From the NCBI GenBank assembly GCA_028286825.1, contig JAQBQV010000011.1, positions 12,920 through 76,919 on the forward strand: 64,000 nt of DNA. The letters are read 5' to 3'. How positions within the stretch are numbered: position 1 is the first letter of the stretch; every line of letters begins with the position of its first letter. This stretch comes from Parcubacteria group bacterium (GTDB lineage Bacteria; Patescibacteriota; Minisyncoccia; Phycocordibacterales; Phycocordibacteraceae). Below, piece by piece: positions 24,642-35,968 of this stretch. The notes beneath the pieces were generated by a model. The model saw only the letters and a program-made list of their open reading frames with translations, searched no databases and was not told the origin of the DNA. The translations under genes were made by a program, and so were the position numbers.

Positions 24642-24672
24642 CGGCGCTAATCCAAGTTCTAATAGCCTCAGC
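24642..24672 (+). repeat. Junction box, variant class (CCAAGTTCTAATAGCCTCAGCAGTGCGGAGC).
   Basis: Near-identical to the copy at 31997. It resembles the tRNA-Asn 3' end. A small hairpin follows, then TTGACA (24773) -N16- TATACT. Confidence 0.6.
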
Positions 24673-24840
24673 AGTGCGGAGCCGATTGAGCAAACAAATA
24701 AGCCCTCTGGGGCTTTTTTGTATTCGAGCGAGGCTCCGATGGGAAGGCTTTGTTTACCCGCAGAGCAGCTAGTTGACATAATCCTGACTTTGTTATACTA
24801 TTAATAGTGGCAATCATGCCACTCACCTTTGGAGATATGT

Positions 24841-25029
24841 ATGGTCCTTTTAATGATCTGGACTCTGTTCTCATATCAGGGATATGGAGTCAGCGTCACT
24901 CAAACTTCAACGCCGCTTAACAATATGGCGGCATGTGTGACGGCCAAAACAGCAGCTGAGTCAGTGCGGATCAAGCCACCACGTGACATGCAGTCAGTCA
25001 CGATCACTGCTGTGTGCGTACCGCTCTAG
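24841..25029 (+). CDS. Small secreted or membrane peptide (cassette 1).
   Basis: GGAGAT RBS 6 nt upstream. A hydrophobic N-terminus (MVLLMIWTLFSYQGYG). 62 aa. Confidence 0.4.
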   Translation: MVLLMIWTLFSYQGYGVSVTQTSTPLNNMAACVTAKTAAESVRIKPPRDMQSVTITAVCVPL

Positions 25030-25229
25030 TTTCGTCGCAACGACGAGGGAAAGGACAACCGTCCCAACTTCCCTCCTCGGCGCGGCGATTCTTTCTTTTC
25101 ATAAACAGTTCCCGGCATTTTTTATGATTTATATCGATCCCATACCTCCACCCACCCGGCTATAAATCCCTACCCTAGAGGGGTCTCAAATCAGCTCGGG
25201 CACACAGTAACTTCCCTCTCTACTTCTTT

Positions 25230-25260
25230 CCAAACTCTAATAACCTCAGCAGTGCGGAAC
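25230..25260 (+). repeat. Junction box, variant class (CCAAACTCTAATAACCTCAGCAGTGCGGAAC).
   Basis: 25/31 identity to the 24642 box. A degenerate canonical box lies upstream at 25141-25162. Confidence 0.5.
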
Positions 25261-25494
25261 TTACCTCGACTTTTCATCGAAGAATGTATCGTCTTTGCAA
25301 AAGCTCGAGATATTCTCTTGCGAGTCTATCGAGCAAACCGATCGATGAACTATCACTTCCCTCACCCGCATTGTCCAATGTCTCGCGACGAGTATTACTC
25401 ATACCGAATCCTGATCCAAGCACGAATGGTTAAACGATACGACGCAACCGCCTTGAGTGCTGGGCTTACTCTCAAAAAACGCTGGGCAGAATAG
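25252..25494 (+). CDS. Doubtful 80-aa ORF following box 2.
   Basis: It starts with GTG inside the box, is His/Arg/Tyr-rich, and is followed by a type-A terminator. Confidence 0.2.
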   Translation: MRNLPRLFIEECIVFAKARDILLRVYRANRSMNYHFPHPHCPMSRDEYYSYRILIQARMVKRYDATALSAGLTLKKRWAE

Positions 25495-25508
25495 ACTCGA
25501 CTCATAGT

Positions 25509-25550
25509 CGCCCGACAGAGCCCCGGCTCCTGTCGGGCGACTCTTTTATG
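25509..25550 (+). terminator. Type-A intrinsic terminator (CGCCCGACAGAGCCCCGGCTCCTGTCGGGCG plus T tract).
   Basis: Perfect 8-bp stem with a palindromic loop, followed by CTCTTTTAT. Confidence 0.7.
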
Positions 25551-25561
25551 CGAACGAACCA

Positions 25562-25588
25562 GTTTGAACATCCTCCACCCAGCGGAGC
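25562..25588 (+). repeat. Junction box (GTTTGAACATCCTCCACCCAGCGGAGC).
   Basis: Canonical box class. The downstream promoter is weak (TAAAAG-N17-TATACT). Confidence 0.65.
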
Positions 25589-25628
25589 ACAAAATAAAAG
25601 AAGTACTGACTCTGTTATACTTTTACCA

Positions 25629-26066
25629 ATGGTTGATAAGGAGACATTAGAAATAAAAGTACCTCCCCTACCACATGGCGTTTTGGATAAATTGGAGGAT
25701 AAAGACTTGAACGAATTATACCTTGGTTTAGATAGCGAGCTCGATAAAGCGGCAGAGCATCGAAGAAGAACTGTTAAAAAATTAATGGCTGGTTTTCTTT
25801 GGTTCATTAATTCACTTTTGTTTTTCAGCATAGGTCCTACTGATGCGCTGATGCAAATTTGGTCACTGGCAACGATGGGTTTGTTGCTTGTACTTTTCGG
25901 TAACACTCAGATCTCTTCGTATCTGGGGCCTCTCTGGCCAATAGCTGGAAGATTTGGTCAGCGTATCGATAGGCCGACTCCGCCAGTAGTGTTAGTAATC
26001 TTTGGCTGGTTATTATTATTTCTCGTATTATCAATTTTTAGCATCATTTTATATCAGAAGGGCTAA
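25629..26066 (+). CDS. Membrane protein with 3-4 TM helices (cassette 3).
   Basis: About 146 aa with hydrophobic helices (FLWFINSLLFFSIG, LATMGLLLVLFG, VVLVIFGWLLLFLVLSIFSII). Confidence 0.5.
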   Translation: MVDKETLEIKVPPLPHGVLDKLEDKDLNELYLGLDSELDKAAEHRRRTVKKLMAGFLWFINSLLFFSIGPTDALMQIWSLATMGLLLVLFGNTQISSYLGPLWPIAGRFGQRIDRPTPPVVLVIFGWLLLFLVLSIFSIILYQKG

Positions 26067-26111
26067 GTTGAAGCAGTTCGAAAATCATCCAGCCACCTGA
26101 GCCAGATAAAT

Positions 26112-26345
26112 TTACTTCCCAGAAGACAATGACTTCCCTTTAGGTTTATATTCGACCTTCCACGTCAGACCCGGTTTTACCCCAGCTATAGCTGGCAATA
26201 GATGGTTAAGCAGTTGTTCCGCTGTCATCTGAAATTTATTACCTTTCGCAGAAACCTTGACCCATCCATCTTTATCTCGAACGTATTTTTCTGTAAAGTT
26301 TTTTGTACCCATCGATATTATATAACTGTCATTTGTTAGCTTCAT
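26112..26345 (-). CDS. Hypothetical Lys-rich 77-aa protein, in opposite orientation within the array.
   Basis: Protein-like composition. It is flanked by a degenerate box (26075-26102) and box 4. Confidence 0.3.
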   Translation of the reverse strand: MKLTNDSYIISMGTKNFTEKYVRDKDGWVKVSAKGNKFQMTAEQLLNHLLPAIAGVKPGLTWKVEYKPKGKSLSSGK

Positions 26346-26401
26346 ACCGCAACATTACATCATAAATACCTAATAATTACGGACGAATTATTCTGAAAAC
26401 A

Positions 26402-26429
26402 GGTTCGAACGTCCTATAGCCAATGGAGC
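26402..26429 (+). repeat. Junction box (GGTTCGAACGTCCTATAGCCAATGGAGC) plus promoter.
   Basis: TTGACT (26434) -N17- TATAAA follows 4 nt downstream. Confidence 0.7.
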
Positions 26430-26511
26430 AAATTTGACTAATTAGACATTTTATAATATAAAGCAGTTCAGCTACTAGTTTTTCTGTTCACCATATCTGC
26501 GAGGAATCGAA

Positions 26512-26922
26512 ATGACCATTCCTGATTGTCTGTTACCGATTCATGACTACATAACAAGCGAGCTGAGGGAAAATCATGAACTTCTCTGCCTTTCGGATGC
26601 CCCTGATGTCAAACAACAGTTTGACGAAATGGAAGATGATTTCGACGATGTCGGAGGTGATCCTGATTTTGACGCTCGGGCTTTTATCAACTCGAGCTAC
26701 GAATACAAGATAGAATGTTGCCAACAAGCGCTGCGAGCGTTAACTGCAAGCGAGTATGATGTAGTCATAACCCACCTGAGTGTCGAACTAACTGCTCTAC
26801 GTGCGTACAGAGACGAGGTTACTAAATATGTCTCAAACATGAGCGGTCGTCAGCGCGAGCGGCTAGCAGCTAAAATTGGCCGACTCGAGCAATATTTACG
26901 AGTACTTGCAGAACAAAAATAG
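26512..26922 (+). CDS. Acidic hypothetical protein (cassette 4).
   Basis: 136 aa. GAGGAA RBS. An intrinsic terminator follows directly. Confidence 0.55.
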   Translation: MTIPDCLLPIHDYITSELRENHELLCLSDAPDVKQQFDEMEDDFDDVGGDPDFDARAFINSSYEYKIECCQQALRALTASEYDVVITHLSVELTALRAYRDEVTKYVSNMSGRQRERLAAKIGRLEQYLRVLAEQK

Positions 26923-26930
26923 AACGACAG

Positions 26931-26975
26931 CCGCCACGAGGAAGAATGCTTCTCTCGTGGCGGTCTTCTTATTTC
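26931..26975 (+). terminator. Intrinsic terminator (CCGCCACGAG-loop-CTCGTGGCGG plus T tract).
   Basis: 10-bp stem followed by TCTTCTTATTTCTT. Confidence 0.7.
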
Positions 26976-26985
26976 TTATACACCA

Positions 26986-27068
26986 GTTCGAACATCCACT
27001 ACCACAAAAGAGTACTTTCATTTCTCTAACCTCGAGTACGAGCAAGAGAAATTGGTCGCCAGCGGAGC
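26986..27068 (+). repeat. Split junction box. GTTCGAACATCCACTACCA, then a 54-nt hairpin insertion, then CCAGCGGAGC, plus promoter.
   Basis: Insertion 27005-27058 begins CAAAAGAGTACTTTCATTT and ends AAATTGGTCG, with an internal stem TTTCTCT/AGAGAAA. TTGACG (27075) -N17- TATATT follows. Confidence 0.7.
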
Positions 27069-27195
27069 TAAGGGTTGACGATCATTTTTTTAAGTGTTAT
27101 ATTTGTACTGGAACCTTAGTGCCATCCTATCTCTGGTAAGCGTAAAAGCTTCACCCGTTCCGCCCAACCCTGGGCGGCTTACCAAGGAGACAACG

Positions 27196-27450
27196 ATGGA
27201 CGAGATGTTCTTCATTACCGACCCCGAAGATCCGAGCAAGATTTATGCTGGTCCGCTCTCGAAAGAGGCGACTGGTGTAAAACTGACGGAACTTCTGCGA
27301 CCGCTTCTCACTGGCAGCGACTTCCACTTCATACGAAGTGCTGGAAGCTATCAGAGCATCGACGAGGTGCTTGAGGAGTGTCGTAAGGAACTGAGCGGCT
27401 GTCTGTATTTCGACGTCGTTCCAGCTTCTGTGGTTGGTAATCGAGCCTGA
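27196..27450 (+). CDS. Hypothetical 84-aa protein (cassette 5).
   Basis: AAGGAG RBS. Starts MDEMFFITDPEDPSK. A terminator follows. Confidence 0.5.
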   Translation: MDEMFFITDPEDPSKIYAGPLSKEATGVKLTELLRPLLTGSDFHFIRSAGSYQSIDEVLEECRKELSGCLYFDVVPASVVGNRA

Positions 27451-27460
27451 ATGTCAGGCA

Positions 27461-27497
27461 GTCCCCGCAAATCATCGCGGGGACTTTTGTTTTTATA
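27461..27497 (+). terminator. Intrinsic terminator (GTCCCCGC-loop-GCGGGGAC plus TTTTGTTTTT).
   Basis: 8-bp GC stem plus T tract. Confidence 0.75.
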
Positions 27498-27508
27498 CAT
27501 GAATGCAA

Positions 27509-27535
27509 GTTCGAACATCCTCTAGCCAGTGGAGC
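27509..27535 (+). repeat. Junction box (GTTCGAACATCCTCTAGCCAGTGGAGC) plus promoter.
   Basis: TTGACG (27540) -N17- TATTAA. Confidence 0.75.
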
Positions 27536-27624
27536 AAATTTGACGATACAGAAGACTTGTGTTATTAAATCTGTTGGCAGGTCTTACAGACCTTTTTGAC
27601 GTTGCACAATTGAGAGGAATCACG

Positions 27625-28206
27625 ATGACAGAAGAAACTTGGGAAATTATCGGAAAGGGTTCAAACACAATCGCAAGTAAGTGTGTGCGATACCTCTTGA
27701 GATACGCATGGCTTCGGGTCGCTCAAAGCAATGTGAGAAAGGAGTTCTTTGTCCTGCTAAAGAAAGTCATTACGCAGGAGACTATACAAAAGCTTTCACC
27801 AAAAAAAGACACGCAGGAGACTGAAGTGCCGCTCTATTTCGTCACTATGCTGTCTGGAAGTAAGGCGAAAATTCGTCTTGTCCTCGGCACGGATGAACTA
27901 GCACACAGCAACGTCGCTCTTATCAAGTGCGAGTGCGAAAAGACCGACGGTTGGGAGAACTTTTCGATTTCGAACTATAATTACGATGAGTGGTTCATCG
28001 ATACTGAGGCGATTAGCCTATCGCTTGATACCGAACGCATGGTATTTATCGACACAGAAGGAAAAGCAACGAGGGAACCAATTCTGGAGATCGCTGAAGA
28101 GGGCGAAAAAATTATCATCACTGCGCCAATAAAGGGAATCACGAACGCCGAGTTCGATCAGGCATTCGCAAAAAAGAAAAAGGAAAGGAAGGTCGCCGCT
28201 TCTTGA
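27625..28206 (+). CDS. Hypothetical 193-aa protein (cassette 6).
   Basis: GAGAGGAA RBS. Starts MTEETWEIIGKG. Lys-rich C-terminus. Confidence 0.55.
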   Translation: MTEETWEIIGKGSNTIASKCVRYLLRYAWLRVAQSNVRKEFFVLLKKVITQETIQKLSPKKDTQETEVPLYFVTMLSGSKAKIRLVLGTDELAHSNVALIKCECEKTDGWENFSISNYNYDEWFIDTEAISLSLDTERMVFIDTEGKATREPILEIAEEGEKIIITAPIKGITNAEFDQAFAKKKKERKVAAS

Positions 28207-28213
28207 ACTATTA

Positions 28214-28258
28214 ACCCCTTACAGAGGATGAATCCTCCGTAAGGGGTGATTCATTTCC
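28214..28258 (+). terminator. Hairpin (CCCCTTACAGAGG-loop-CCTCCGTAAGGGG) with a weak T tract.
   Basis: 12-bp stem. The downstream tract is TGATTCATTTCC. Confidence 0.45.
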
Positions 28259-28269
28259 ATACAAAACAA

Positions 28270-28296
28270 GTTCGAACAACCTCTATCCAGCGGAGC
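28270..28296 (+). repeat. Junction box (GTTCGAACAACCTCTATCCAGCGGAGC) plus promoter.
   Basis: TTGACA (28303) -N17- TATACA. Confidence 0.75.
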
Positions 28297-28395
28297 TAGG
28301 GGTTGACAGAGGTGGTGTTGTATGCTATACAAGAGTTAGGCCAAGCCGTATAGGCTTGATGATGAACGTTGTTAAACCACTTCGTGGGAGTTCCA

Positions 28396-28797
28396 ATGCG
28401 CGTTAAAATGAAAGTAAGGGTTTGCTTCGCTGACGCCGAGAAAATGTTTGCCGCTGGAGTTCGAGCGGCAGCGCTCGATTTGGTCACGCTGGCCATGACG
28501 TCAGCAAGCGCCTGGTGGTTTTTGTCCACCGACATGCCAGACTTTCTGGTGCTCGAGAAACTGGCGCTCGCAGTCGGCTGGTTTCTGGTGTTCGTTGCCT
28601 TATGCGGTGGCCTTCCGGAAGTTCTCAAACAGGTGTGGCCCTACTGGCAACTCGCACTTCAGATCTACTGGCGCGAAAGCAGAGTCGGACAACTTTCGCT
28701 CTTCCCTCACGGTGACCATGAAGTCCAAAGGCCGTATGGGCCGGTGGGACGGGAACCGAGCAAGAAAGCGGTGGCGCTAAAGCCCGCCATCAACTGA
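28396..28797 (+). CDS. Small membrane protein with two TM helices (cassette 7).
   Basis: GGGAG RBS. Starts MRVKMKVRV. The + orientation is preferred over the overlapping minus ORF 28296-28628 because it fits the promoter/terminator framing. Confidence 0.45.
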   Translation: MRVKMKVRVCFADAEKMFAAGVRAAALDLVTLAMTSASAWWFLSTDMPDFLVLEKLALAVGWFLVFVALCGGLPEVLKQVWPYWQLALQIYWRESRVGQLSLFPHGDHEVQRPYGPVGREPSKKAVALKPAIN

Positions 28798-28816
28798 CGC
28801 TGACATCAATCATACA

Positions 28817-28858
28817 CACCCGACAGAGCCCCGGCTCCTGTCGGGTGTTCTGTTTTTA
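28817..28858 (+). terminator. Type-A terminator (CACCCGACAGAGCCCCGGCTCCTGTCGGGTG plus T tract).
   Basis: Same hairpin as the copy at 25509. Confidence 0.7.
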
Positions 28859-28871
28859 ATGGACGACAGTG

Positions 28872-28898
28872 GTTCGAACATCCTCTACCCAGCGGAGC
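28872..28898 (+). repeat. Junction box matching the consensus exactly (GTTCGAACATCCTCTACCCAGCGGAGC) plus promoter.
   Basis: TTGACA (28903) -N17- TATGAT. Confidence 0.8.
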
Positions 28899-29023
28899 AA
28901 AATTGACATAGTATGTAGAATGTCATATGATATTTCTGATTCTTAGTCCGTACGGCTAAGTCGCCCCATGGGGTAAGGACGTTATCTGTGCGTCGTCTCA
29001 CGGAGATTAAAAGGAGAGCTCGA

Positions 29024-29458
29024 ATGAGCGATGGAAACGGTCAGTGTTATCAATTGGAATCTGGACCCTCACGAGAAGATTTCTTCGATAGTTTGCGTCT
29101 AGGAATGGAGGCCGAGTCATTACGGGTGCTGGAATTTTGGTGCACACATCAGCGCCCTACAGACTGCACAGGGCGAATCATGTACATCGAAATTCAAGGC
29201 ATTCATCGTTACGGCGAAGAAGAAGACAAGTGGTTCTTCTTCGGTCGTGAACGGGCCTTGATTCTTCTTCCAGATGGTCCCATGGAGGGTTGGAAAGCTC
29301 CCAGTATGGATTTCGCTTTCGGCACGTGGGACACCCAACATCGGAAAGGAGCGGTGATGATGCACAAAAACGGTTCTTTTTTCACTGCACCCATGACTGA
29401 GCGCGAAATTTTCGAACGCGCATACCCCACAGCTAAGAAGCGACCAAGAAGACGTTAA
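29024..29458 (+). CDS. Hypothetical 144-aa protein (cassette 8).
   Basis: AAAAGGAGAG RBS. Starts MSDGNGQCYQLESG. Confidence 0.55.
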   Translation: MSDGNGQCYQLESGPSREDFFDSLRLGMEAESLRVLEFWCTHQRPTDCTGRIMYIEIQGIHRYGEEEDKWFFFGRERALILLPDGPMEGWKAPSMDFAFGTWDTQHRKGAVMMHKNGSFFTAPMTEREIFERAYPTAKKRPRRR

Positions 29459-29461
29459 ACG

Positions 29462-29503
29462 CCGCTCGCCAGATACCGCGTCTGTTCGAGCGGTTTCTGT
29501 TTT
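29462..29503 (+). terminator. Type-B terminator (CCGCTCG-loop-CGAGCGG plus TTTCTGTTTTT).
   Basis: Same stem family as the copy at 33979. Confidence 0.65.
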
Positions 29504-29515
29504 TACTCAGAACAG

Positions 29516-29583
29516 GTTCGAACGTCATCCACCCATCGGAGCCCTCAATAGATTTAGTTCGAACTTCCTCGACCGATAGGAAA
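29516..29583 (+). repeat. Two tandem junction boxes (GTTCGAACGTCATCCACCCATCGGAGC, then a degenerate GTTCGAACTTCCTCGACCGATAGGAAATACC).
   Basis: Second copy 14 nt after the first, with no ORF between them. Confidence 0.6.
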
Positions 29584-29641
29584 TACCCCTTCATAAAAAC
29601 CTCATAGCATACACACGCGTTAGGGTGTACTGTTCCTGTAC

Positions 29642-30655
29642 ATGAACCTACCTAGTTATGGGTTAGATCCTCAGCTTTCAGAAGCAATTTTCGGTACTAT
29701 CCGTGAACCCATGGTCGTACTGAGCGAAGACTTACACGTCATTGTCGCAAGTCGCGCTTTTTATGAAAAATTCCAGACGCCTTTTGGTGATGCTGAAGGT
29801 AAACTGTTCTACGAACTGGGCAATGGGCAATGGAACGTCCCTCGCTTGCGTACCTTGCTTGAAGAGGTAATTCCAAAAAAGAGTGTCGTTCGCGACCATG
29901 AGGTTGAGCATGTGTTCGACCATCTAGGGAAACGAATCATGCTGATTAATGCCCGTGAGATTGTATATGAGAACGGACTAAAAAAAATGCTTCTCTCCAT
30001 CCTTGACGTAACAGAGCTGCGTGCTGGCGAGGAACACAAGCTTCAATTAATGGAGCAAAAGGATACTCTTCTGAAAGAAATGCGGCATCGCATTGCCAAC
30101 AGCCTTCAGCTTATCGCGAGCATTATTCTACTGAAAGCACATACAGTCCCTTCCGAAGAAAGCCGTATGCATCTTGAAGACGCTCACGACCGCATTCTCT
30201 CTATTGCTACCGTACAGAGAAATCTGGATCCAACTGACTCAGGTGCTGAAGTACCAATCACTGAATACTTAAGGACGCTCTGTTCGAGCCTCGCAAAATC
30301 AATGATTGGAGGGCGAAAGCCGATACAGCTTGTTGTGCAGGGAGATGCGAGTACGGTTACGCCCGATGAGGCAATCAGTCTGGGGCTCATGACAACCGAG
30401 CTCGTCATAAATTCACTAAAGCACGCATTCCCATCTGGCGAAGGCAACGTGACCGTGAGTTATCACACGCTAAAGACTGACTGGATTTTGGTGATCAAGG
30501 ACGATGGAGTTGGATATTCCTTAGCGGTAAACAATAAGGAAGACGGGCTCGGGACAAGCATAATCGAGTCCCTCGCAAATCAAATGAAGGCCACCATTAA
30601 GCGAGAAAGTTCACACCTGGGTACGACTGTTTCTGTTGGGAGCGCCGCGACCTAA
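29642..30655 (+). CDS. Cytoplasmic PAS-HisKA_2-HATPase sensor histidine kinase.
   Basis: An N-terminal PAS-like domain, an EMRHRIANSLQLIASIIL HisKA_2 H-box, and a C-terminal ATPase (ELVINSLKHAF ... GLGTSIIESL). Confidence 0.75.
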   Translation: MNLPSYGLDPQLSEAIFGTIREPMVVLSEDLHVIVASRAFYEKFQTPFGDAEGKLFYELGNGQWNVPRLRTLLEEVIPKKSVVRDHEVEHVFDHLGKRIMLINAREIVYENGLKKMLLSILDVTELRAGEEHKLQLMEQKDTLLKEMRHRIANSLQLIASIILLKAHTVPSEESRMHLEDAHDRILSIATVQRNLDPTDSGAEVPITEYLRTLCSSLAKSMIGGRKPIQLVVQGDASTVTPDEAISLGLMTTELVINSLKHAFPSGEGNVTVSYHTLKTDWILVIKDDGVGYSLAVNNKEDGLGTSIIESLANQMKATIKRESSHLGTTVSVGSAAT

Positions 30656-30670
30656 TCCTAAGATACGTAC

Positions 30671-30697
30671 GTTCGAACTTCCTCTAGCCAGTGGAGC
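30671..30697 (+). repeat. Junction box (GTTCGAACTTCCTCTAGCCAGTGGAGC) plus promoter.
   Basis: TTGATA (30705) -N17- TATATA. No terminator separates the kinase stop from this box. Confidence 0.75.
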
Positions 30698-30787
30698 ATG
30701 GGGGTTGATATGTAATAAGAATTGTTTTATATAAAGAAAGGCGAGTCTCTTCAGGCTCACAGTTCAAACTTCCATTAGGAGAAAGCT

Positions 30788-31192
30788 ATGGCAAAGGATG
30801 TCAGCGCTGCAGAGCAGTCAGGACTCTCGTTTAAGGAGCGTTGCACGCATGCGAAGGAATACGTCGAGGCGCAGTGGACCTTCATCCAGAACAACGCCAC
30901 AATTGCACTCATGGGTCAGCAGGCGAATGCCACCGACTCCGTGGAACACGAACGGCAACAGGAGCGCCGCCTCGCGGAAATCGCAGATGCAGACCTGCGA
31001 CAAGACCTTCGAGAGTCATTCGGCGAATTGTCCAGTCGCATGGAAAAGTTTTACAGCAAACTCAAAGAAGCCGATCGTGAGCTGATGCAAAAGCTCTGGT
31101 CGCTCACAATCGAGAGCTGCAAAAGCCTGTATGGCGAGGATGCCACCGCTGTGGCACTCAATCAGACAAATCGCGCCCGCCAAGGCAATTGA
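30788..31192 (+). CDS. Hypothetical 134-aa protein (cassette 10, gene 1).
   Basis: AGGAGAAAG RBS. Helical, charged composition. Confidence 0.55.
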   Translation: MAKDVSAAEQSGLSFKERCTHAKEYVEAQWTFIQNNATIALMGQQANATDSVEHERQQERRLAEIADADLRQDLRESFGELSSRMEKFYSKLKEADRELMQKLWSLTIESCKSLYGEDATAVALNQTNRARQGN

Positions 31193-31218
31193 CATCATCA
31201 GTCTGAAAGGAATCGACG

Positions 31219-31401
31219 ATGGTATCGGACGAGAGTATCGGAAAAGAGTTTGGACTGACCCAAGCTCAGACTGCCGCGCTTCTTCATGACGACCCTGCCT
31301 GGGCGCTACACATTGGCCTCGAGAACTTCCAATCAAATGGACCGATGGCCGACTTCCTAAGGAGGAAGATCGCTAATGCAGAAAGTGATATTACCGCTTA
31401 A
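31219..31401 (+). CDS. Hypothetical 60-aa protein (cassette 10, gene 2).
   Basis: AAAGGAATCG RBS. A type-A terminator follows. Confidence 0.4.
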   Translation: MVSDESIGKEFGLTQAQTAALLHDDPAWALHIGLENFQSNGPMADFLRRKIANAESDITA

Positions 31402-31411
31402 TTTTCATCAA

Positions 31412-31452
31412 CGCCCGACGGAGTCCCGGCTCCTGTCGGGTGTCTCTTTTAT
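31412..31452 (+). terminator. Type-A terminator variant (CGCCCGACGGAGTCCCGGCTCCTGTCGGGTG plus T tract).
   Basis: Hairpin plus CTCTTTTAT. Confidence 0.65.
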
Positions 31453-31464
31453 ACGAACGAATCA

Positions 31465-31491
31465 GTTCGAACATCCTCCGGCCAGCGGAGC
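31465..31491 (+). repeat. Junction box (GTTCGAACATCCTCCGGCCAGCGGAGC) plus promoter.
   Basis: TTGACG (31498) -N17- TATTCT. Confidence 0.75.
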
Positions 31492-31609
31492 CAGCTATTG
31501 ACGTAATCTATATAACGTGCTATTCTGTTCACAGGACTGAATGGCTGCATTGAAGCCATTTGGTGACCTGATCCGATATTTGATAAATTATATATGAGGA
31601 GTGCCGACT

Positions 31610-31891
31610 ATGAAATTTCGCTACAGTGTCATCATTGCAGCGCTGATCGGGCTCGCAGCATGCGAGAAAGCACCACTTCGCACCGAATCCAGCAATAACG
31701 CGCAGATCAACGTCCAACTGCTTTTCGAGCATGATGGATGCAAGATCTACCGTTTCGCGGACAATGGCTACAACCTCTACTTCACGAAGTGTGACCGCGG
31801 CCAAAGCCACGTAAGCTGGAACCAAACGATGATGGTCGGGAAAGCTGTACTCACAAGGCCTATGGAGGTACAGACCAATTACGACCAATGA
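31610..31891 (+). CDS. Small lipoprotein (cassette 11).
   Basis: GAGGAG RBS. Signal peptide plus lipobox (MKFRYSVIIAALIGLAAC). Confidence 0.6.
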   Translation: MKFRYSVIIAALIGLAACEKAPLRTESSNNAQINVQLLFEHDGCKIYRFADNGYNLYFTKCDRGQSHVSWNQTMMVGKAVLTRPMEVQTNYDQ

Positions 31892-31913
31892 CACTGGTCA
31901 ACGACCTCATTAA

Positions 31914-31956
31914 CGCCCGACAGAGCCCCGGCTCCTGTCGGGCGTCTCTTTTTATA
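31914..31956 (+). terminator. Type-A terminator.
   Basis: CGCCCGACAGAGCCCCGGCTCCTGTCGGGCG plus TCTCTTTTTAT. Confidence 0.7.
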
Positions 31957-31996
31957 CAAGATTTGGAATGTAATATGTCCCCTTCTCTCCTTGTAT

Positions 31997-32027
31997 CCAA
32001 GTTCTAATAGCCTCAGCAGTGCGGAGC
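31997..32027 (+). repeat. Junction box, variant class (CCAAGTTCTAATAGCCTCAGCAGTGCGGAGC) plus promoter.
   Basis: Identical to the box at 24642. TTGACA (32033) -N17- TATATA. Confidence 0.75.
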
Positions 32028-32107
32028 AAAATTTGACATTTATATTATAGTGTTTTATATATAAGTTGGGCAACCTAGTTCATCACTTACCTCGAAAGGA
32101 GGCGCAC

Positions 32108-32704
32108 GTGAAAGATTTCGCTTTCGCTCTTAATGTCTTCGGCGCTTGTCTCGGGTCCCTTACTGCTTGCTTATACGCCCTGCGTGTTTGGCAAAAAAAG
32201 GAGTGTGCCAATCTAGCGACCTGGTCCATCATCTTTATTTTGGATTTCGTCGGCCTTTATCTCACGTATGTCACCGGCAACCACGAGCCATATATCCAGA
32301 TCGGCTGGTGCATAGCGGTAACGCTCATCGTCGCCGCCGCTTGGATACGTAAAGGTGATTGGTTATGGAAAGGGACTGACACTGTCGTACTCGTCACTTG
32401 TGCCATGTCAGTACTCGTGTGGGTTACGAGCAAGGAAGTCTTCCTTTCCCTGTTTGGTTATCTCGCCGCGGTATACGGATCGTCCATACCGCAAGCAAGA
32501 GACTATACCAGTGATCCGCATGCCGCACATAAAAGTGCCTGGATGTGGCAGTTGAGTCTGATCGCAATTCTGTTTCCAATATCGGCAAAGCTGCTCGATG
32601 GTAAATACGGCATCGAACACACATTGGTGTACGTTGCGTTGTTTGTACTTAACATCATCATGGCAGCGCTCTGCATGCGGCGGACTACCCGCCACACTTT
32701 CTAA
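32108..32704 (+). CDS. Polytopic membrane protein with about 6 TM helices (cassette 12, gene 1).
   Basis: AAGGAGG RBS and a GTG start (MKDFAFALNVFGACLG...). Confidence 0.55.
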   Translation: MKDFAFALNVFGACLGSLTACLYALRVWQKKECANLATWSIIFILDFVGLYLTYVTGNHEPYIQIGWCIAVTLIVAAAWIRKGDWLWKGTDTVVLVTCAMSVLVWVTSKEVFLSLFGYLAAVYGSSIPQARDYTSDPHAAHKSAWMWQLSLIAILFPISAKLLDGKYGIEHTLVYVALFVLNIIMAALCMRRTTRHTF

Positions 32705-32716
32705 AAGGAACCTCAG

Positions 32717-32953
32717 ATGCAAACCCCGGAAGAAGTCAGCGTAGTAAGTCACGTGCCGTTAGTTCTCGTCTTGAGTCTACCGGACGGCTGCACATCAGGT
32801 AGATGGGAGGCGGCAGAATCATTCGCCGCTAGCATCACCCGGGCTCGTCAGTTGTATCCCGGCCGCCAGTTCCAATTCATACCCTTTTCCTACAAGACAG
32901 ACGGCGACGGAAAAGATCCCGCATTGGAAACGATGCTCGCAATCGCACAATAA
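32717..32953 (+). CDS. Hypothetical 78-aa protein (cassette 12, gene 2).
   Basis: AAAGGAAC RBS. A type-A terminator follows. Confidence 0.4.
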   Translation: MQTPEEVSVVSHVPLVLVLSLPDGCTSGRWEAAESFAASITRARQLYPGRQFQFIPFSYKTDGDGKDPALETMLAIAQ

Positions 32954-32957
32954 CAAC

Positions 32958-32998
32958 CACCCGACGGAGCCCCGGCTCCTGTCGGGTGTCTTCGTTTT
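32958..32998 (+). terminator. Type-A terminator.
   Basis: CACCCGACGGAGCCCCGGCTCCTGTCGGGTG plus TCTTCGTTTTCAT. Confidence 0.65.
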
Positions 32999-33006
32999 CA
33001 TACACG

Positions 33007-33034
33007 GATTCGAACATCCTCCAGCCAGCGGAGC
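33007..33034 (+). repeat. Junction box (GATTCGAACATCCTCCAGCCAGCGGAGC) plus promoter.
   Basis: TTGACA (33041) -N17- TATATA. Confidence 0.75.
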
Positions 33035-33127
33035 TAGAAATTGACAAACGCTATTAGTTATGCTATATAAACTGGGTGCTAAGTTCCTTAGCTAAGACAT
33101 ACTTCACTTAAGAACAGGAGGAAGCAG

Positions 33128-33697
33128 ATGAAAAAGGTACTGCCTTGCTTGATAATTGTCCTCATCGGGAGCGTCATTTCTGTAGTGTTCGAGAATCGGT
33201 CCGGCATGATGAATGCCTTACAGACCGCAGGAATTCAATGGACGACGTCGGTCGTCTTCGCTATCGGGGCAGGCACCGGCATGTTCGCCTATCGGCTCCT
33301 CAGGAAAGCGACGCTCGAAAGTATGAGTATGCTGTGGCAGCGCTTGTTCAAAGGGGTGCTTCTCGTTGGTCTGTGCTCCTTGTTCATCTTTGCGGCGGAT
33401 TACGAACATAAGAGACGCGAGTCAAAAAGCGTAGAGCATCTTTCATATCACAAATACTACAAAGCTGGTGATCTAGTGGAGATGCGGACGGACGGACGGA
33501 GAGGGGTCGTTCTTGAAGTGTCGGGGTGCCTGTCAACGCATATGGACAGTCATCGTTCATGCAATTACAGCGTGCGCTTCCCCAGCTCCGCTGTACGTAC
33601 TAATACTCACCTGCTCGATCCTGATGGACCGATTCGTGCAGTGCCGTATGAGGTGTTGATCGTTTACGACTACGAACTCACACGTGCCCAGACATGA
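33128..33697 (+). CDS. Membrane protein with 3 TM helices and a C-terminal soluble domain (cassette 13, gene 1).
   Basis: AGGAGGAAG RBS. 189 aa. Confidence 0.6.
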   Translation: MKKVLPCLIIVLIGSVISVVFENRSGMMNALQTAGIQWTTSVVFAIGAGTGMFAYRLLRKATLESMSMLWQRLFKGVLLVGLCSLFIFAADYEHKRRESKSVEHLSYHKYYKAGDLVEMRTDGRRGVVLEVSGCLSTHMDSHRSCNYSVRFPSSAVRTNTHLLDPDGPIRAVPYEVLIVYDYELTRAQT

Positions 33698-33751
33698 ACT
33701 CATAAAGTCGGTCGGGGTGCTTTGTTTCTAATCCACTTGAGGAGAATCAGC

Positions 33752-33961
33752 ATGGCAACAATCGGCATAGCATTCGACGCGTTCCCGGAACAAGGCATAT
33801 ACCTCGGTAAGAAAGTACGTGTCTGTTTTAGCTACGACAAGTCGCGAACAATTGACGGAACGGTTGTCCGGGACGACATTGAAGATCCGGGACATACCAT
33901 CATAAAGCTCGAAGATGGTCGCCACGTCCTGGCAACTGAGTGCCAATACCAGCCGCTGTAA
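33752..33961 (+). CDS. Hypothetical 69-aa protein (cassette 13, gene 2).
   Basis: GAGGAGAATC RBS. Starts MATIGIAF. Confidence 0.4.
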   Translation: MATIGIAFDAFPEQGIYLGKKVRVCFSYDKSRTIDGTVVRDDIEDPGHTIIKLEDGRHVLATECQYQPL

Positions 33962-33978
33962 AGTGCTTACGACGCAAT

Positions 33979-34020
33979 CCGCTCGACAGACACCGAGTCT
34001 GTTCGAGCGGTTCTGTTTTT
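33979..34020 (+). terminator. Type-B terminator.
   Basis: CCGCTCGACAGACACCGAGTCTGTTCGAGCGG plus TTCTGTTTTT. Confidence 0.65.
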
Positions 34021-34028
34021 AAACACAG

Positions 34029-34055
34029 GTTCGAACATCTTCTATCCAGCAGAGC
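34029..34055 (+). repeat. Junction box (GTTCGAACATCTTCTATCCAGCAGAGC) plus a weaker promoter.
   Basis: CTGACT-N16-TATAGT. Confidence 0.65.
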
Positions 34056-34139
34056 TGACTTTTTTAGTAATTGTGCTATAGTTAAGATAGAAGTTGCACT
34101 GGGTTAACCAAGCAGTCTTACCACCGTGAAGGAATTCTG

Positions 34140-34820
34140 ATGACCCTATTCAAAGCCGTTCTGTTCTTACTCTCTAGCGTTATTGCCTGTGCTCCGTGCG
34201 GAGCACAGCAACAACTGACTCAACAAACGTTGATACAGCAGGTGCTCAATCCCTTGCGTCAGCATATTGTTGCTTCGTATCCAATCTCAGATCTGAAAGT
34301 GAAGTTCGTTGATGCCCTCGGCGATTCCGCTGTTACGCTTGCAGTCGCGCAAAGATACTCGGTAGTTGGAGGGCATGGCATTGGCGGAGATACACCACTA
34401 GCTTTTAGCGGCCCTCGACCCGATGGGGCAGGGCCTGCCGTGATCATCGTTTTCGAGAACTTCGTCGAGCGAATGCAGTACGGAGTAAAGTTCGCGAAGA
34501 GCCAGAAAGAGTACGAAGAGTACCTTGAAGACTTGCTCATTGGTGTGTACTTGCACGAGTACTACCACATCAAGAAGCAAGGATTCTGGAAACTCAATAA
34601 TACTCGAGCCGAGATGATTGCATTCGAAGCTGATTGCTGGAAATACACTGTGGAGGAAATACTTCTGCCCATGCAGCGAGGTGGGCGAGGCAAATTGCTA
34701 CCAGGCACCTTTGATGACACTGTTCTTGCTCTTTACACAGAGCTTAAGGGTAAGACATCCGATCCTCGATGGAAGAAGTTGTTTGAGGATACGTACGGCA
34801 AGAGCAAGCCAAGTTCGTAG
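34140..34820 (+). CDS. Secreted protein with a HEYYH (HExxH) motif (cassette 14).
   Basis: AAGGAA RBS. Signal peptide (MTLFKAVLFLLSSVIACAPCGAQ). A GVYLHEYYHIKKQ motif. Confidence 0.55.
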   Translation: MTLFKAVLFLLSSVIACAPCGAQQQLTQQTLIQQVLNPLRQHIVASYPISDLKVKFVDALGDSAVTLAVAQRYSVVGGHGIGGDTPLAFSGPRPDGAGPAVIIVFENFVERMQYGVKFAKSQKEYEEYLEDLLIGVYLHEYYHIKKQGFWKLNNTRAEMIAFEADCWKYTVEEILLPMQRGGRGKLLPGTFDDTVLALYTELKGKTSDPRWKKLFEDTYGKSKPSS

Positions 34821-34837
34821 TCTGCAATGCACTATCA

Positions 34838-34872
34838 ACCACCAGACAGCGTAAGCTGCTTCGGTGGTTTAC
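34838..34872 (+). terminator. Hairpin terminator (AACCACC-loop-GGTGGTT plus TACGTTTTCAT).
   Basis: 7-bp stem, long loop, weak T tract. A TTGACA promoter at 34919 follows without a canonical box. Confidence 0.4.
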
Positions 34873-35024
34873 GTTTTCATGACATCAAATTATCCATGAT
34901 CCAATGTGGAGAGTTTAATTGACAATTATGTAAACACGTACAATAGTAAATATAGTTTCACTTCTGCTGTCTGCAGAGCATATCCTGTTCATTCTCTGTT
35001 TCTGTTATTCACGAGGAGGCTTCG

Positions 35025-35447
35025 ATGACGTCCGGACTCGTTTCGCCAATGTACCCTGTACTCCACTTCCCTATTCCGGGACAGCCCAGGGAGATATGCC
35101 TAATAGCGTCACAGCAACACTTTGGAATCCTTATTCCGATTGAAAGCTGGGACGAGGCAGTACTCAGGCCCCTCTTCAACTCGACGCTGGATACTTTTTC
35201 GTTGTGGTATCAGAAATATGTCGATTTTGTGAAAGGGCTAGAAAAACATACTCTCCCGCCGCCGCCGAAAGATGATATCGTGCTTTTTGCTGACGTCTTT
35301 TCGACCACTAAACCTACTGCGGCAGATCTGCCCGAACACAGGATTAGTACAGCGACAATGGAGGGCGGGGGCGATTTCCTCTTTGTGAGAGAAAGAGGCG
35401 TGCAAATTGGTGAGTTCTTCCATCAGTCATTGACGATTCGCCAGTAA
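35025..35447 (+). CDS. Hypothetical 140-aa protein (cassette 15).
   Basis: GAGGAGG RBS. A terminator follows. Confidence 0.5.
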   Translation: MTSGLVSPMYPVLHFPIPGQPREICLIASQQHFGILIPIESWDEAVLRPLFNSTLDTFSLWYQKYVDFVKGLEKHTLPPPPKDDIVLFADVFSTTKPTAADLPEHRISTATMEGGGDFLFVRERGVQIGEFFHQSLTIRQ

Positions 35448-35469
35448 CCGAGACTCCGTTTACGACTCA

Positions 35470-35512
35470 ACCGCCACCAACAGAACCGTTGGGAGGCGGT
35501 TCATCATTTCAT
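35470..35512 (+). terminator. Intrinsic terminator (AACCGCC-loop-GGCGGTT plus CATCATTTCATT).
   Basis: 7-bp GC-rich stem. Confidence 0.5.
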
Positions 35513-35522
35513 TAAGCAGTAG

Positions 35523-35606
35523 TTCGAACATCCTCTACCACCACAAAAGAGTACTTCCATTTTTATAGTCGCTCTGCTCCTTAAAAATTAGGTCGCCAGC
35601 GGAGCC
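35523..35606 (+). repeat. Split junction box. GTTCGAACATCCTCTACCA, then a 55-nt hairpin insertion, then CCAGCGGAGC.
   Basis: Insertion 35542-35596 starts CCACAAAAGAGTACTTCCATTT and ends AAATTAGGTCG, with an internal stem ATTTTTA/TAAAAAT. It is homologous to the 27005-27058 insert, and the stems differ in a compensatory way. TATAAT lies at 35633. Confidence 0.7.
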
Positions 35607-35644
35607 CTGAATGGACTTAGTTCGAAACTGGTATAATTTTTCCA

Positions 35645-35914
35645 ATGAACACGGGTCGATCCGACAATTCACTAGAGAGTTTCGACCGCACAAAATTCAT
35701 TGCGAAAATTTTGGCCGTTATCATAACTACCTTTGCGATATTTTTCGCAGCGTTATTTTTTCCTGACCATTGCTACGCTAATTGTCGCATTTCTGTTTAT
35801 TATATTGACCGTCCTCAGACGTGGTTTGAGCTGGGCGTTTGGTTTATCGCTAGTCTGGCCTTTTCCACCTATCTAGTCTTTTTTAGAAAAGGAAAAAAAC
35901 TTTCTCTGGTATAG
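35645..35914 (+). CDS. Small membrane protein with 2 TM helices (cassette 16).
   Basis: 89 aa (FIAKILAVIITTFAIFFAALFF ... WFIASLAFSTYLVFF). Confidence 0.45.
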   Translation: MNTGRSDNSLESFDRTKFIAKILAVIITTFAIFFAALFFPDHCYANCRISVYYIDRPQTWFELGVWFIASLAFSTYLVFFRKGKKLSLV

Positions 35915-35937
35915 CCTTTTATCGTTCTTTAATACAC

Positions 35938-35968
35938 CAAGTTCAAATATCCTCTACCTAGCGGTAGC
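35938..35968 (+). repeat. Degenerate junction box (CAAGTTCAAATATCCTCTACCTAGCGGTAGC).
   Basis: About 22/27 match to the consensus. The preceding ATACACCAA tract is as in other junctions. Confidence 0.55.

Follow-up and report, generated by a model that had tools for sequence, protein, structure and literature searches.

The island at 17269-39570 of the 64-kb window (the whole stretch of DNA that was analysed) was probably built by repeated site-specific recombination at a tRNA-Asn-type site, carried out by large serine recombinases (LSRs) of a family that spans the CPR. This reading draws on the anatomy of the sites, the link of the LSR family to tRNA 3' ends and to a 27-nt box, a +5-bp rule, box ends matched to LSR clades and cassette polymorphism, all of which are established by the comparisons below. 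A sequence-only reading had proposed that cassettes accumulate here, and it is supported, as the tRNA similarity, the variation at box edges and the LSR-element context are all in its favour. Such an island most likely serves as a natural platform for gene capture that recurs across the large and poorly known Patescibacteria/CPR, which are ultra-small bacteria, and no earlier description of such an array was found in the literature searched.

The repeated unit is the box GTTCGAACATCCTCCACCCAGCGGAGC, together with a variant of the same length, GTTCTAATAGCCTCAGCAGTGCGGAGC, which aligns with the canonical form without gaps at 19/27 identity; at least 18 copies of the two lie on a single strand within the island. 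A pattern search of the window for the consensus with up to three mismatches gave eight matches against none expected, a repeat finder returned 15 copies with all 15 on the plus strand, and a profile search of the 64-kb window confined the significant copies to 25560-35965. The proposed recurrence of a box in one orientation is thus real, and within the window the box is exclusive to the island. Canonical copies were located on the plus strand at 25562..25588 (26/27), 26076..26102 (22/27), 26403..26429 (21/27), 27509..27535 and 28270..28296 (both 24/27), 28872..28898 (26/27, followed by TTGACA-17-TATGAT in the promoter scan), 30671..30697 (23/27), 31465..31491 (25/27), 33008..33034 (25/27) and 34029..34055 (23/27). 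The variant occurs three times, at 24656-24682, 25234-25260 (23/27 to the variant) and 32001-32027 (27/27). A hairpin insert of ~55 nt interrupts two further boxes, one at 26986-27068 (GTTCGAACATCCACTACCAC, an insert of ~53 nt, then CCAGCGGAGC; repeat families D9 and D14) and one at 35522-35605; such inserts would disrupt a protein half-site and count against reading the boxes as LSR sites. Increasingly degenerate boxes, also on the plus strand, carry the array further, at 34884-34913 (with TTGACA at 34919 by promoter scan), 36953-36980 (preceded by a terminator and TTTATAC), 37520-37547, 38037-38073 and 38856-38883, the last being preceded by a terminator and AAACAG and forming the final junction before the last cassette. 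The array first placed at 24642-35968, with at least 16 cassettes, was therefore borne out but drawn too short; it occupies 24770..39570 on the plus strand and holds ~22 cassettes, which are 0.33-1.15 kb long and contain one gene or two apiece.

The box corresponds to the 3' end of tRNA-Asn with a single 5-nt insertion. The tRNA-Asn (GTT) gene of the window lies at 17196..17268 on the plus strand (ARAGORN; Rfam tRNA, 74 bits), and its alignment score with the box was reached by none of 20000 shuffles, whether the whole box or only the portion outside the T-loop motif was considered. The tRNA similarity claimed from sequence alone therefore stands, whereas its form as three small indels is better expressed as the single insertion. 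Across loci, the T-loop motif and the conserved element arm were 20-21 nt apart at the 21 loci with the short spacing of the tRNA type and 25-26 nt apart in 13 boxes. In serine integrases the motif bound by the zinc-ribbon domain shifts by 5 bp between attB and attP half-sites, and the attP half-site is 25 bp long (PMC3783163); the additional 5 bp of the box over the tRNA form match this published rule. The box is not an att core of the classic tyrosine-integrase type, as had been supposed, and is rather the longer, donor-type (attP-type) half-site of an LSR. Conservation over 93 boxes was 0.85-1.0 within the 27 nt and collapsed just outside both edges, and the AG of GGAGC was the sole segment common to all tRNA-Asn genes and all boxes. 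The outer motif is repeated on a right arm at 29516-29564 and 35522-35628, with the dyad midpoint at A25/G26 of GGAGC. At the former (plus strand; repeat family D11), what appeared as a pair of boxes 41 nt apart (29516/29557) is a single box (29516-29542) with the right arm CCCTCAATAGATTTAGTTCGAAC, in which GTTCGAAC occurs again at +16 to +24, giving a complete attP-like site whose right arm resembles the recombinase-element arms of loci L105 and L123. At the latter, the split box is followed by the right arm CCCTGAATGGACTTAGTTCGAAAC (plus strand; families D11 and D14), and the box at 35941..35967 (plus strand, 20/27) is followed by AAAGTTTAGATG, similar to the right arm AAAGTTTGGAAATG of the recombinase element in the window.

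That recombinase element adjoins the tRNA. The LSR (568 aa, 17256..18962, minus strand; Pfam Resolvase, Recombinase and Zn_ribbon_recom) has its stop codon within the tRNA-Asn 3' end, the two genes overlapping by 13 nt, and the same overlap was found in L047 and L049-L054. Among 1914 LSR homologues, the best 120 shared 55-83% identity, and their named sources were CPR. At ~75 further homologue loci the 3' end of the LSR gene borders on tRNA-Asn, -Gln, -Ser or -Trp or on a 27-nt box, and the last 11-12 nt of the adjoining box match the acceptor strand of the tRNA targeted by that LSR clade. The integrated element in the window spans 7.4 kb (17269..24682), as judged from elements bounded alike in L055, L056, L049 and L005, and contains a right arm (AAAGTTTGGAAATGAGG...), the recombinase, an AAA_25/DnaB-like protein, a LOOT RNA (21182-21300), two unknown proteins and a terminal variant box. 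This variant box, GTTCTAATAGCCTCAGCAGTGCGGAGC at 24656..24682 (plus strand), is the left (P) arm of the element, now within attR; the same box type ends the elements in L055, L056 and L049. The native downstream flank of the tRNA-Asn (B'), with a long terminator hairpin, follows at 24683..24742 (plus strand); its homologue lies directly 3' of tRNA-Asn in L036 and after the last box in L022. Next come a degenerate tRNA-3'-like end, TTTACCCGCAGAGCAGC (24753..24769, plus strand), and the first cassette promoter, with TTGACA at 24773 by promoter scan, in the same layout as in L036. The order in the window is thus tRNA, LSR element, variant box and native flank. L055 shows an equally clean insertion of a single LSR element, L049 and L056 carry tandem LSR elements with boxes between them, and the element ends in L005 and L035 carry canonical boxes. 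The boxes therefore do occur in a mobile context, bounding LSR elements. Against the reading of the array as LSR-built, the window LSR pairs with the variant box while most window cassettes bear the canonical one.

A genome scan showed that the box is nearly exclusive to Patescibacteria. At 22 of 45 loci the box is preceded by a tRNA-Asn in the same orientation (14 by ARAGORN and 8 with a group I intron in the tRNA), often with arrays, which again favours the tRNA resemblance. Single-strand arrays of 3-8 boxes were found in L003, L012, L015, L028, L030, L033, L037, L040 and L042. No copy of the box turned up in viral contigs, which counts against the LSR-array reading. Cassette-level variation with breakpoints at the boxes was seen both between distant genomes and between closely related strains. 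L021 contains a 77%-identical copy of the cassette at 26103-26429, whose breakpoints on either side fall at the sites; this cassette is fourth in the window array and first after the tRNA in L021. It carries the gene of a 77-aa protein (26112..26345, minus strand), the sole antisense gene of the array, which shares 74-90% identity across 815 protein clusters. Strain contigs that are 99.8-99.9% identical form two haplotypes, which split exactly at a box edge.

We propose the following mechanism. The attB-type left half-site in the chromosome is the final 22 nt of tRNA-Asn, GTTCGAATCCTACCCGCGGAGC (17247-17268, plus strand), composed of the T-loop motif GTTCGAA, 10 nt and GGAGC, and the 27-nt box is the attP-type left half-site, with the outer GTTCGAAC and the inner CC.GCGGAGC 5 bp farther apart. 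Strand exchange is inferred to occur at or beside the AG of GGAGC, the exact crossover position being an inference, so that each unit opens immediately 3' of GGAGC and is closed by a box of its own. The 7.4-kb unit adjoining the tRNA, which has the recombinase, would be autonomous, and the ~22 small units carry cargo alone, usually one or two genes behind a strong sigma-70 promoter, with a terminator and then the box after them. The array may grow by entry of new units at the tRNA-proximal site, with older units pushed outward, which fits the progressive decay of the boxes towards 39.5 kb. That the LSR moves the cassettes lacking an LSR is inferred, as there are no circle, excision-junction or activity data; they might move as mini-circles served in trans, or as passengers when an LSR element excises via a more distal box. 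Two further points weigh against this mechanism. The right-arm motif of recombinase elements, GC[CA]AGTnAGGA, is missing from most small cassettes, and their spacing from site to promoter varies between 0 and 8 nt; by canonical rules they would not be complete attP sites. Growth at the tRNA-proximal site requires something like an attP x attL event, a reaction that large serine integrases of the canonical kind do not perform. The tandem elements of L049 and L056 show that such an event occurs but not how.

These gaps leave some room for an explanation in which the boxes do act as LSR half-sites while the small cassettes have no mobility of their own, being leftover or reshuffled cargo of LSR elements or products of homologous exchange between 27-nt boxes, as might follow natural transformation. 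The missing right arm would be expected on this account, arm remnants remain at some cassette starts (29542-29564, 35605-35628 and 35969-35985), strain identity spans the entire box, as box-box recombination would also yield, and no recombinase lies inside the 8 kb examined for most arrays. Nevertheless, we consider it unlikely, since the left ends are precise, with the promoter 0-8 nt past GGAGC, and are not deletion points placed at random, the small cassettes of the window showed no pieces of recombinase genes, 27 nt is short for efficient homologous exchange, and the high conservation of the box over CPR classes implies selection on the cassette sites themselves.

Most array cassettes have their own promoter and terminator, all array genes except one lie on the plus strand, and the cargo is largely without family match. 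TTGAC or TTGAT starts 5-8 nt after 9 of 18 window boxes, against a chance expectation of 0.0076 per box, and T-run hairpins of -20 to -30 kcal/mol lie upstream of most window boxes, one hairpin family, CCCGACAGAGCCCCGGCTCCTGTCGGG, recurring five times. Where the first cassette directly follows the tRNA, its end ...GGAGC is succeeded by TTGACA as after the boxes. The junction module of terminator, box and promoter that had been described therefore holds within the window; across all loci, however, TTGAC occurs within 18 nt of only 24 of 93 boxes, and thus the promoter is not part of the conserved module. For the same reason we give very little weight to the alternative that the box serves a regulator of the whole island as an operator or as an upstream promoter element. 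The TTGAC -35 elements 4-7 nt beyond 9 of the 18 window boxes are in its favour, but elsewhere a terminator hairpin and not a promoter follows most boxes, the -35 spacing varies from 0 to 8 nt, conservation stops sharply at both box edges, the tRNA-Asn 3' end replaces the box ahead of first cassettes, the homology of cassette copies stops at the box 3' edge, and boxes bound recombinase elements. The suggestion of an activator-binding box is accordingly left without support.

It is equally improbable that the boxes are functionless, decaying tRNA 3' fragments displaced by classical tRNA-targeting islands. Displaced partial tRNAs do mark old integrations in known tRNA-seeded islands (bioRxiv 10.1101/2020.12.28.424599), and the distal boxes of the window are decayed; yet an identical 5-nt insertion separates box from tRNA in all lineages, the box does not track the acceptor sequence of the host tRNA-Asn, which differs between lineages, its conservation exceeds that expected of a neutral relic, and the +5 design is also present in boxes aimed at tRNA-Gln, -Trp and -Ser. 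An integron-like system, in which a tyrosine recombinase would work on single-stranded sites folded like attC, has only a superficial likeness in its support (a one-strand array of small cassettes with a conserved site between them, beside a fixed entry site) and is hardly credible, as the box and its flanks fold no better than shuffles (z of +0.5 to +1.1 in four of five cases and -2.0 in one), the box is no imperfect palindrome, a scan of 26 ORFs within and next to the island turned up no tyrosine recombinase, and the cassettes bear their own promoters.

With repeated LSR-mediated recombination retained as the preferred reading, the array is best regarded as akin in logic to SCC elements, integrons and tycheposons and a member of none. 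SCC/SCCmec elements use large serine recombinases, integrate at the 3' end of a conserved gene, have a direct repeat of the integration sequence at every junction and form tandem composite arrays in which some elements lack a recombinase and are served in trans. The present island shares with them the LSRs, the conserved-gene 3' end, the junction repeats and the tandem arrangement, with units that have no recombinase and would depend on one in trans. However, the target there is rlmH and here a tRNA 3' end, the units are 20-60 kb there and 0.3-1.2 kb with one or two genes here, and here the junction repeat is a distinct donor-type half-site, 5 bp longer and no copy of the target. The likeness to integrons lies in a fixed entry site with a one-strand array of small cassettes, each ended by a conserved recombination site, the older ones farther from entry; the differences are that a tyrosine IntI was not found near the island and the sites are no folded attC hairpins, that each cassette has its own promoter and terminator in place of the common Pc promoter, and that the entry site is the end of a tRNA gene.

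Tycheposons of Prochlorococcus integrate at tRNA genes, with later arrivals displacing earlier ones deeper into islands that hold scattered partial tRNA repeats and degraded remnants; they carry replication genes, and tyrosine recombinases were found in 910 of 937 elements, LSRs being in a minority, with repeats that are copies of tRNA segments (bioRxiv 10.1101/2020.12.28.424599). The tRNA integration, outward displacement, scattered partial tRNA-type repeats, degraded remnants, replication genes and some LSRs recur here, whereas the repeat is a specialised 27-nt half-site and most units are single-gene and recombinase-less, with a uniform build of promoter, gene, terminator and site. The phage integrase of the Listeria A118/LI model has the same set of Resolvase, Recombinase and zinc-ribbon domains, a donor half-site of ~25 bp and an outer motif 5 bp nearer the centre in the recipient site (PMC3783163). 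In the Patescibacteria, by contrast, the recipient is a tRNA end, clades of a single family are directed at different tRNAs by a change in the 11-12 innermost nt of the donor arm, and the sites form long arrays that canonical directionality rules do not predict.

The junction box that the sequence-only reading had described was recovered: the consensus, with three mismatches or fewer allowed, gave eight matches where none was expected, and a repeat finder returned 15 core copies, all on the + strand and spaced 0.3–1.5 kb apart. In a search of the 64-kb window with a profile built from these repeat copies, significant matches were confined to 25560–35965. A variant box, GTTCTAATAGCCTCAGCAGTGCGGAGC, is present three times (24656, 25234 and 32001); it equals the canonical box in length and matches it at 19 of 27 positions in an ungapped alignment. 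Strong hairpins with T runs were found 5′ of most window boxes, in agreement with the terminator placed there by the sequence-only reading. The promoter it placed after the box stood only in part: TTGAC or TTGAT occurred 5–8 nt past nine of the 18 window boxes, where chance alone would give 0.0076 per box, but across loci the promoter does not belong to the conserved module. A promoter and terminator scan of the window showed cassettes with their own TTGACA-N17-TAnnnT promoters and their own terminators. The count of at least 16 cassettes was borne out and is amended to approximately 22, with the array running past its flagged end; distal boxes become increasingly degenerate, and the array closes with a lipoprotein cassette near 39570.

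The cargo consists mostly of unknown small proteins that are membrane, secreted or acidic; those that could be identified were a PAS/HisKA_2 kinase, a DUF4884 lipoprotein, YflT and transglycosylase-associated stress proteins, a SET-domain protein and a glyoxalase-fold protein. No match to a defence system was found among the window cargo examined. The antisense cassette protein of 77 aa at 26112–26345 (−) belongs to no Pfam family and is 74–90% identical across 815 CPR protein clusters, an unusually high conservation for such a small size. It was found between boxes and also in ordinary operons away from arrays, and its predicted fold, a small β-sheet plus one helix (pLDDT 78), had no significant PDB match. 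It was considered as an accessory or directionality factor and was given no role. The split boxes at 26986–27068 and 35522–35605 each hold an insert of ~55 nt that forms a hairpin; the two inserts are related and break the box at one and the same point. The tRNA-like RNA found beside tRNA-Asn at other loci carries a hairpin at the corresponding place, on its complementary strand. At 44627–49360 (+), the window encodes an HlyD-type membrane-fusion protein and a full-length AcrB-type transporter (597 bits), in an otherwise reduced-looking CPR genome.

Across 93 boxes from the window and from retrieved loci (L handles), each of the 27 positions is conserved at 0.85–1.0. Conservation drops at once to background 3′ of C27 and is almost at background 5′ of G1, where only AAACAG and the T run persist. 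The alternative of a co-regulated island sharing one activator-binding box, that is, of an operator or promoter element, is disfavoured by these sharp edges, by the presence of TTGAC within 18 nt 3′ of only 24 of the 93 boxes, and by the tRNA end that stands in for the box before first cassettes. A promoter at fixed distance was also rejected as a component of the site, the spacing ranging from 0 to 8 nt and the promoter being missing after most boxes elsewhere. An attC-like hairpin was ruled out because single strands of the box do not fold: as DNA, five boxes with their flanks gave z values of +0.5 to +1.1 in four cases and −2.0 in one, and the box has no inverted-repeat structure except the 8-nt GTTCGAAC. 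The terminator that follows the box at other loci had raised the suspicion of the 3′ end of an RNA gene (tmRNA or tRNA); that terminator belongs to the native flank, the original sequence downstream of tRNA-Asn, and both ARAGORN and Rfam were empty at the box. A Xer/dif-type module, considered for the site length of 27–28 nt, was dismissed from the sequence alone for want of a two-arm palindrome.

The discrete box resembles the end of tRNA-Asn, as had been claimed, and none of 20000 shuffles reached the box–tRNA alignment score. Aligned with one insertion (CATCC), the box reads GTTCGAA-CATCC-TCCACCCAGCGGAGC and the tRNA end GTTCGAA-TCCTACCCGCGGAGC, with 19 of 22 positions identical. GGAGC is the sole segment always common to tRNA-Asn ends and boxes, and lineage-specific changes in the host acceptor stem are not tracked by the box. 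In 14 of the 40 loci analysed with ARAGORN, tRNA-Asn(GTT) precedes the box by a few hundred to 1500 nt and is oriented like it, with other tRNAs near boxes only sporadically. At eight more loci a group I intron splits the anticodon loop of tRNA-Asn. Such introns in tRNA-Asn occur in many CPR genomes (L002, L003, L015, L021, L022, L023, L026 and L042; also L080, L085, L086, L090, L099 and L150), and in some cases an HNH-like reading frame lies just 5′ of the 3′ exon. In L010, L016, L029, L032 and L046 a cassette follows the tRNA directly, with GGAGC, 0–5 nt, and then TTGACA and a −10 element, as after boxes. The terminator and structured element after the last box of an array are those found directly after the tRNA in cassette-free genomes. 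Thus the unit runs from just past one GGAGC up to the next.

This structured element, ~130–155 nt next to tRNA-Asn and absent from the window, was located in L021 (4955–5113, −), L032 (6550–6705, +), L003 (3264–3418, −) and L037 (4727–4873, +), and further in L006, L011, L020 (two copies), L026, L028 (three copies), L041 and L042. Its closing stem is a co-varying copy of the host tRNA-Asn acceptor stem, and a T-stem-like helix comes after it; of the 35 pairs in the consensus fold, 22 show compensatory changes, and Rfam gave no match. The element serves as a marker of the native flank at the integration site, and in L028 cassettes come after its own 3′ end.

Beside the tRNA-Asn of the window (17196–17268, +) lies the gene for the LSR (large serine recombinase; 17256–18962, −). 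The protein of 568 aa, in line with the 567–580 aa of most close homologues, has the N-terminal resolvase catalytic, recombinase and zinc-ribbon domains (PF00239, PF07508 and PF13408). Homologues numbered 1914 at E < 1e-20; the best 120 of these 1914 are 55–83% identical, and the named sources among them are CPR. In L047 and L049–L054, the LSR gene ends 13–15 nt inside tRNA-Asn, as in the window, and the PEBP/fmt/def neighbourhood is shared. LSR elements at tRNA-Asn carry a variant-type 27-nt box at the distal end: in the window this box (24656–24682) is followed by the flank that directly follows the tRNA in L036, L055 holds one clean insertion, with the tRNA side at one edge and the native flank at the other, and L049 and L056 each have two elements in tandem with boxes between. 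Canonical boxes stand at the distal ends in L005 and L035. In total, tRNA ends and boxes bound LSR elements in more than 40 loci. This evidence is associative only, and catalysis by the LSR of recombination between tRNA end and box is inferred.

Near 2190–2260, the box that separates the tandem elements is 8 nt longer in one of the near-identical strains L049 and L051 than in the other; 15 nt of the longer allele are identical to the host tRNA-Asn end. LOOT RNA (Rfam RF03000, 68–74 bits), a small RNA of unknown function, was detected in the window (21182–21300, +), L005 (2978–3094) and L041 (193–314); since it lies inside the LSR elements of the window and L005, it is apparently carried by mobile elements. 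The contig L083 (11434 nt) has a 63-nt terminal overlap, so that it is possibly a circular element. It encodes a member of the LSR family, and the recombinase-side arm is directly abutted by the 3′ end of a tRNA-Ser-type tRNA-like RNA with the short 22-nt spacing.

A metagenome scan with the LSR family alignment gave 80 loci at 40–72% identity. The 3′ end of the LSR gene abuts tRNA-Asn in 12 loci plus six intron-bearing ones, tRNA-Gln in five, tRNA-Ser in three, tRNA-Trp in one and a 27-nt box in ~38 (within L103–L149). In each such box the last 11–12 nt agree with the acceptor strand of the tRNA that related recombinases use, with 3′ ends ...GCGGAGC, ...AGTCTCCCAGC, ...CTCCCCGC and ...CATCCGC. 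In many of the ~38 loci a conserved element gene lies just 5′ of the box, the arrangement expected of a free donor site or of a tandem copy. The clades at tRNA-Gln, -Ser and -Trp ends (L071, L081, L082, L088 and L092–L097), with their matching 27-nt donor arms, present a natural retargeting series.

Spacing was measured in 34 loci from the conserved arm of the element, GC[CA]AGTnAGGA, to the T-loop-type motif. It was 20–21 nt in 21 short-spacing loci, nearly all of them tRNA ends, and 25–26 nt in 13 boxes; box and tRNA end, 27 and 22 nt long respectively, share both the outer motif GTTCGAA and the inner motif. In the Listeria integrase system the donor half-site measures 25 bp; a motif at positions 16–24 is recognised by the zinc-ribbon domain, and in the recipient site this motif lies 5 bp closer to the centre than in the donor (Rutherford et al., PMC3783163). 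The box and tRNA end fit this description as putative donor and recipient half-sites, and the geometry would place the exchanged dinucleotide, which the two partners of such a system have in common, at or beside the AG of GGAGC. At 29516–29564 and 35522–35628, GTTCGAA(A)C is also present on the right arm at +16 to +24; the dyad midpoint of both is the AG of GGAGC, as inferred from sequence, in which the cleavage position is not visible.

Variation in cassette presence and position with breakpoints at the box was supported by a cassette copy in L021 and by a split between strain haplotypes. The antisense cassette at 26103–26429 has a 77%-identical copy in L021, where similarity begins just past the upstream ...AGC and stops at GGAGCAAAT; it is fourth in the window, and in L021 is first after the tRNA and last before the native flank. 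Two other window cassette genes have homologues at other positions in other arrays (L028; L029 and L033). The SET-domain gene was not counted as evidence for mobility, because its homologues in L022, L036 and L004 lie outside arrays or antisense to them. One exact-protein look-up for window relatives found only a 6.4-kb contig with the same gene order and a second returned no record, so strain-level variation is described in another lineage. The diverged box of the low-GC lineage L057–L064 reads GTTCCAATCTTATCCCAGTCTCTGAGC, with its length of 27 nt and the TTGACA after it retained. Contigs of this lineage obtained from separate samples are 99.8–99.9% identical up to one box edge, past which they split into two unrelated sequences (four contigs against three).

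The right arm is missing from most small cassettes, with starts resembling it at 29542, 35605 and 35969. Such cassettes could reflect tolerance of the recombinase, be passengers on an element excising via a distal box, or owe something to box–box recombination. Canonical integrases avoid recombination with hybrid sites. Growth of the array at its tRNA-proximal end requires such recombination, and the tandem LSR elements show that it occurs. The evidence for mobility is comparative, and mobility itself is inferred; activity, circles and empty sites were not directly observed.

A degenerate-box scan of 185579 species genomes gave 45 loci, nearly all in Patescibacteria, the box-bearing groups including Saccharibacteria, Paceibacterota/Parcubacteria and Nomura-, Kaiser-, Adler-, Falkow-, Curtiss- and Nealsonbacteria; two GC-rich matches resemble chance occurrences in coding sequence. 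Several loci have arrays of 3–8 boxes on one strand. The nearest matches of the window itself point to a CPR genome, inferred to be probably saccharibacterial. In the viral contigs searched, the box had no match and a single-protein search for the recombinase found nothing; an alignment search for the recombinase gave one locus. Metagenome contigs recurrently terminate at tRNA-Asn or a box (L055, L056, L058–L061 and L010/L012), so the arrays break assemblies and the locus is probably under-represented in CPR genome bins.

We tentatively propose, while leaning slightly against the proposal as a whole, that Patescibacteria possess a phylum-wide gene-capture platform, integron-like in function and serine-recombinase-based. 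Within this reading, it is not excluded that mini-cassettes comprise little beyond a promoter, a gene, a terminator and one 27-nt donor-type half-site; that tRNA-targeting LSRs act in trans to insert, excise and exchange them between lineages; that the landing pads are the tRNA-Asn end and the 3′ end of the neighbouring tRNA-like structured RNA; and that LSR targets are reprogrammed by fitting the inner 11–12 nt of the donor arm to a tRNA acceptor strand. Much of bacterial diversity belongs to the Patescibacteria, whose genomes are tiny and whose genetic manipulation is very difficult. If real, a conserved natural landing site paired with a matching family of recombinases would explain how such reduced genomes maintain a flexible stock of small genes with surface, membrane and unknown products. 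The recombinase, a recipient site based on 22 nt and a donor site based on 27 nt form a testable kit that could allow gene insertion in CPR, and one serine-recombinase family keeping the 5-bp donor/recipient rule over different tRNA-end targets bears on the reprogramming of serine integrases. The interest of the arrays rests on their spread across CPR and on their direct experimental testability.

Our literature search for such box or cassette arrays found no description, the candidate papers being unrelated. The proposed analogy to integrons is valid for the logic of a one-strand cassette array, but the defining tests of an integron failed. No Phage_integrase-type match was obtained among 26 ORFs scanned in or beside the island (not all ORFs of the 64 kb), whereas integrons have the tyrosine recombinase IntI next to the entry site; the sole recombinase among the 26 is of the serine type. 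Integron attC sites are imperfect palindromes that fold as single strands, and the box is neither; integron cassettes are mostly promoterless and rely on a common promoter, whereas those of the island have their own promoter and terminator. Staphylococcal cassette chromosome (SCC) elements insert into the 3′ end of a conserved gene, repeat the integration sequence at each junction and form tandem arrays in which some units lack a recombinase; these features are matched here by the tRNA-Asn end, a box at every junction and ~22 recombinase-less units. The target clearly differs, however, being a tRNA rather than rlmH, the target of SCC, whose recombinases are CcrA/CcrB/CcrC orthologues. Tycheposons (bioRxiv 10.1101/2020.12.28.424599) and classical tRNA islands integrate serially at one tRNA, with older units outward, and the island does likewise, as indicated by the LSR element adjoining the tRNA, box decay rising distally and the tandem elements of L049 and L056. 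Their direct repeats, however, are copies of a tRNA segment, whereas the box has a constant 5-nt insertion and does not track the host acceptor stem. The domain set, the ~25-bp donor half-site and the 5-bp outward shift of the motif expected of an LSR attP/attB system are all present. Taken together, the island appears at the level of sequence to qualify as a serine-recombinase attP/attB system, the defining tests for an integron and a classical tRNA island failed, and the logic of the island is that of SCC composite islands, of integrons and of tRNA-seeded islands such as those of tycheposons.
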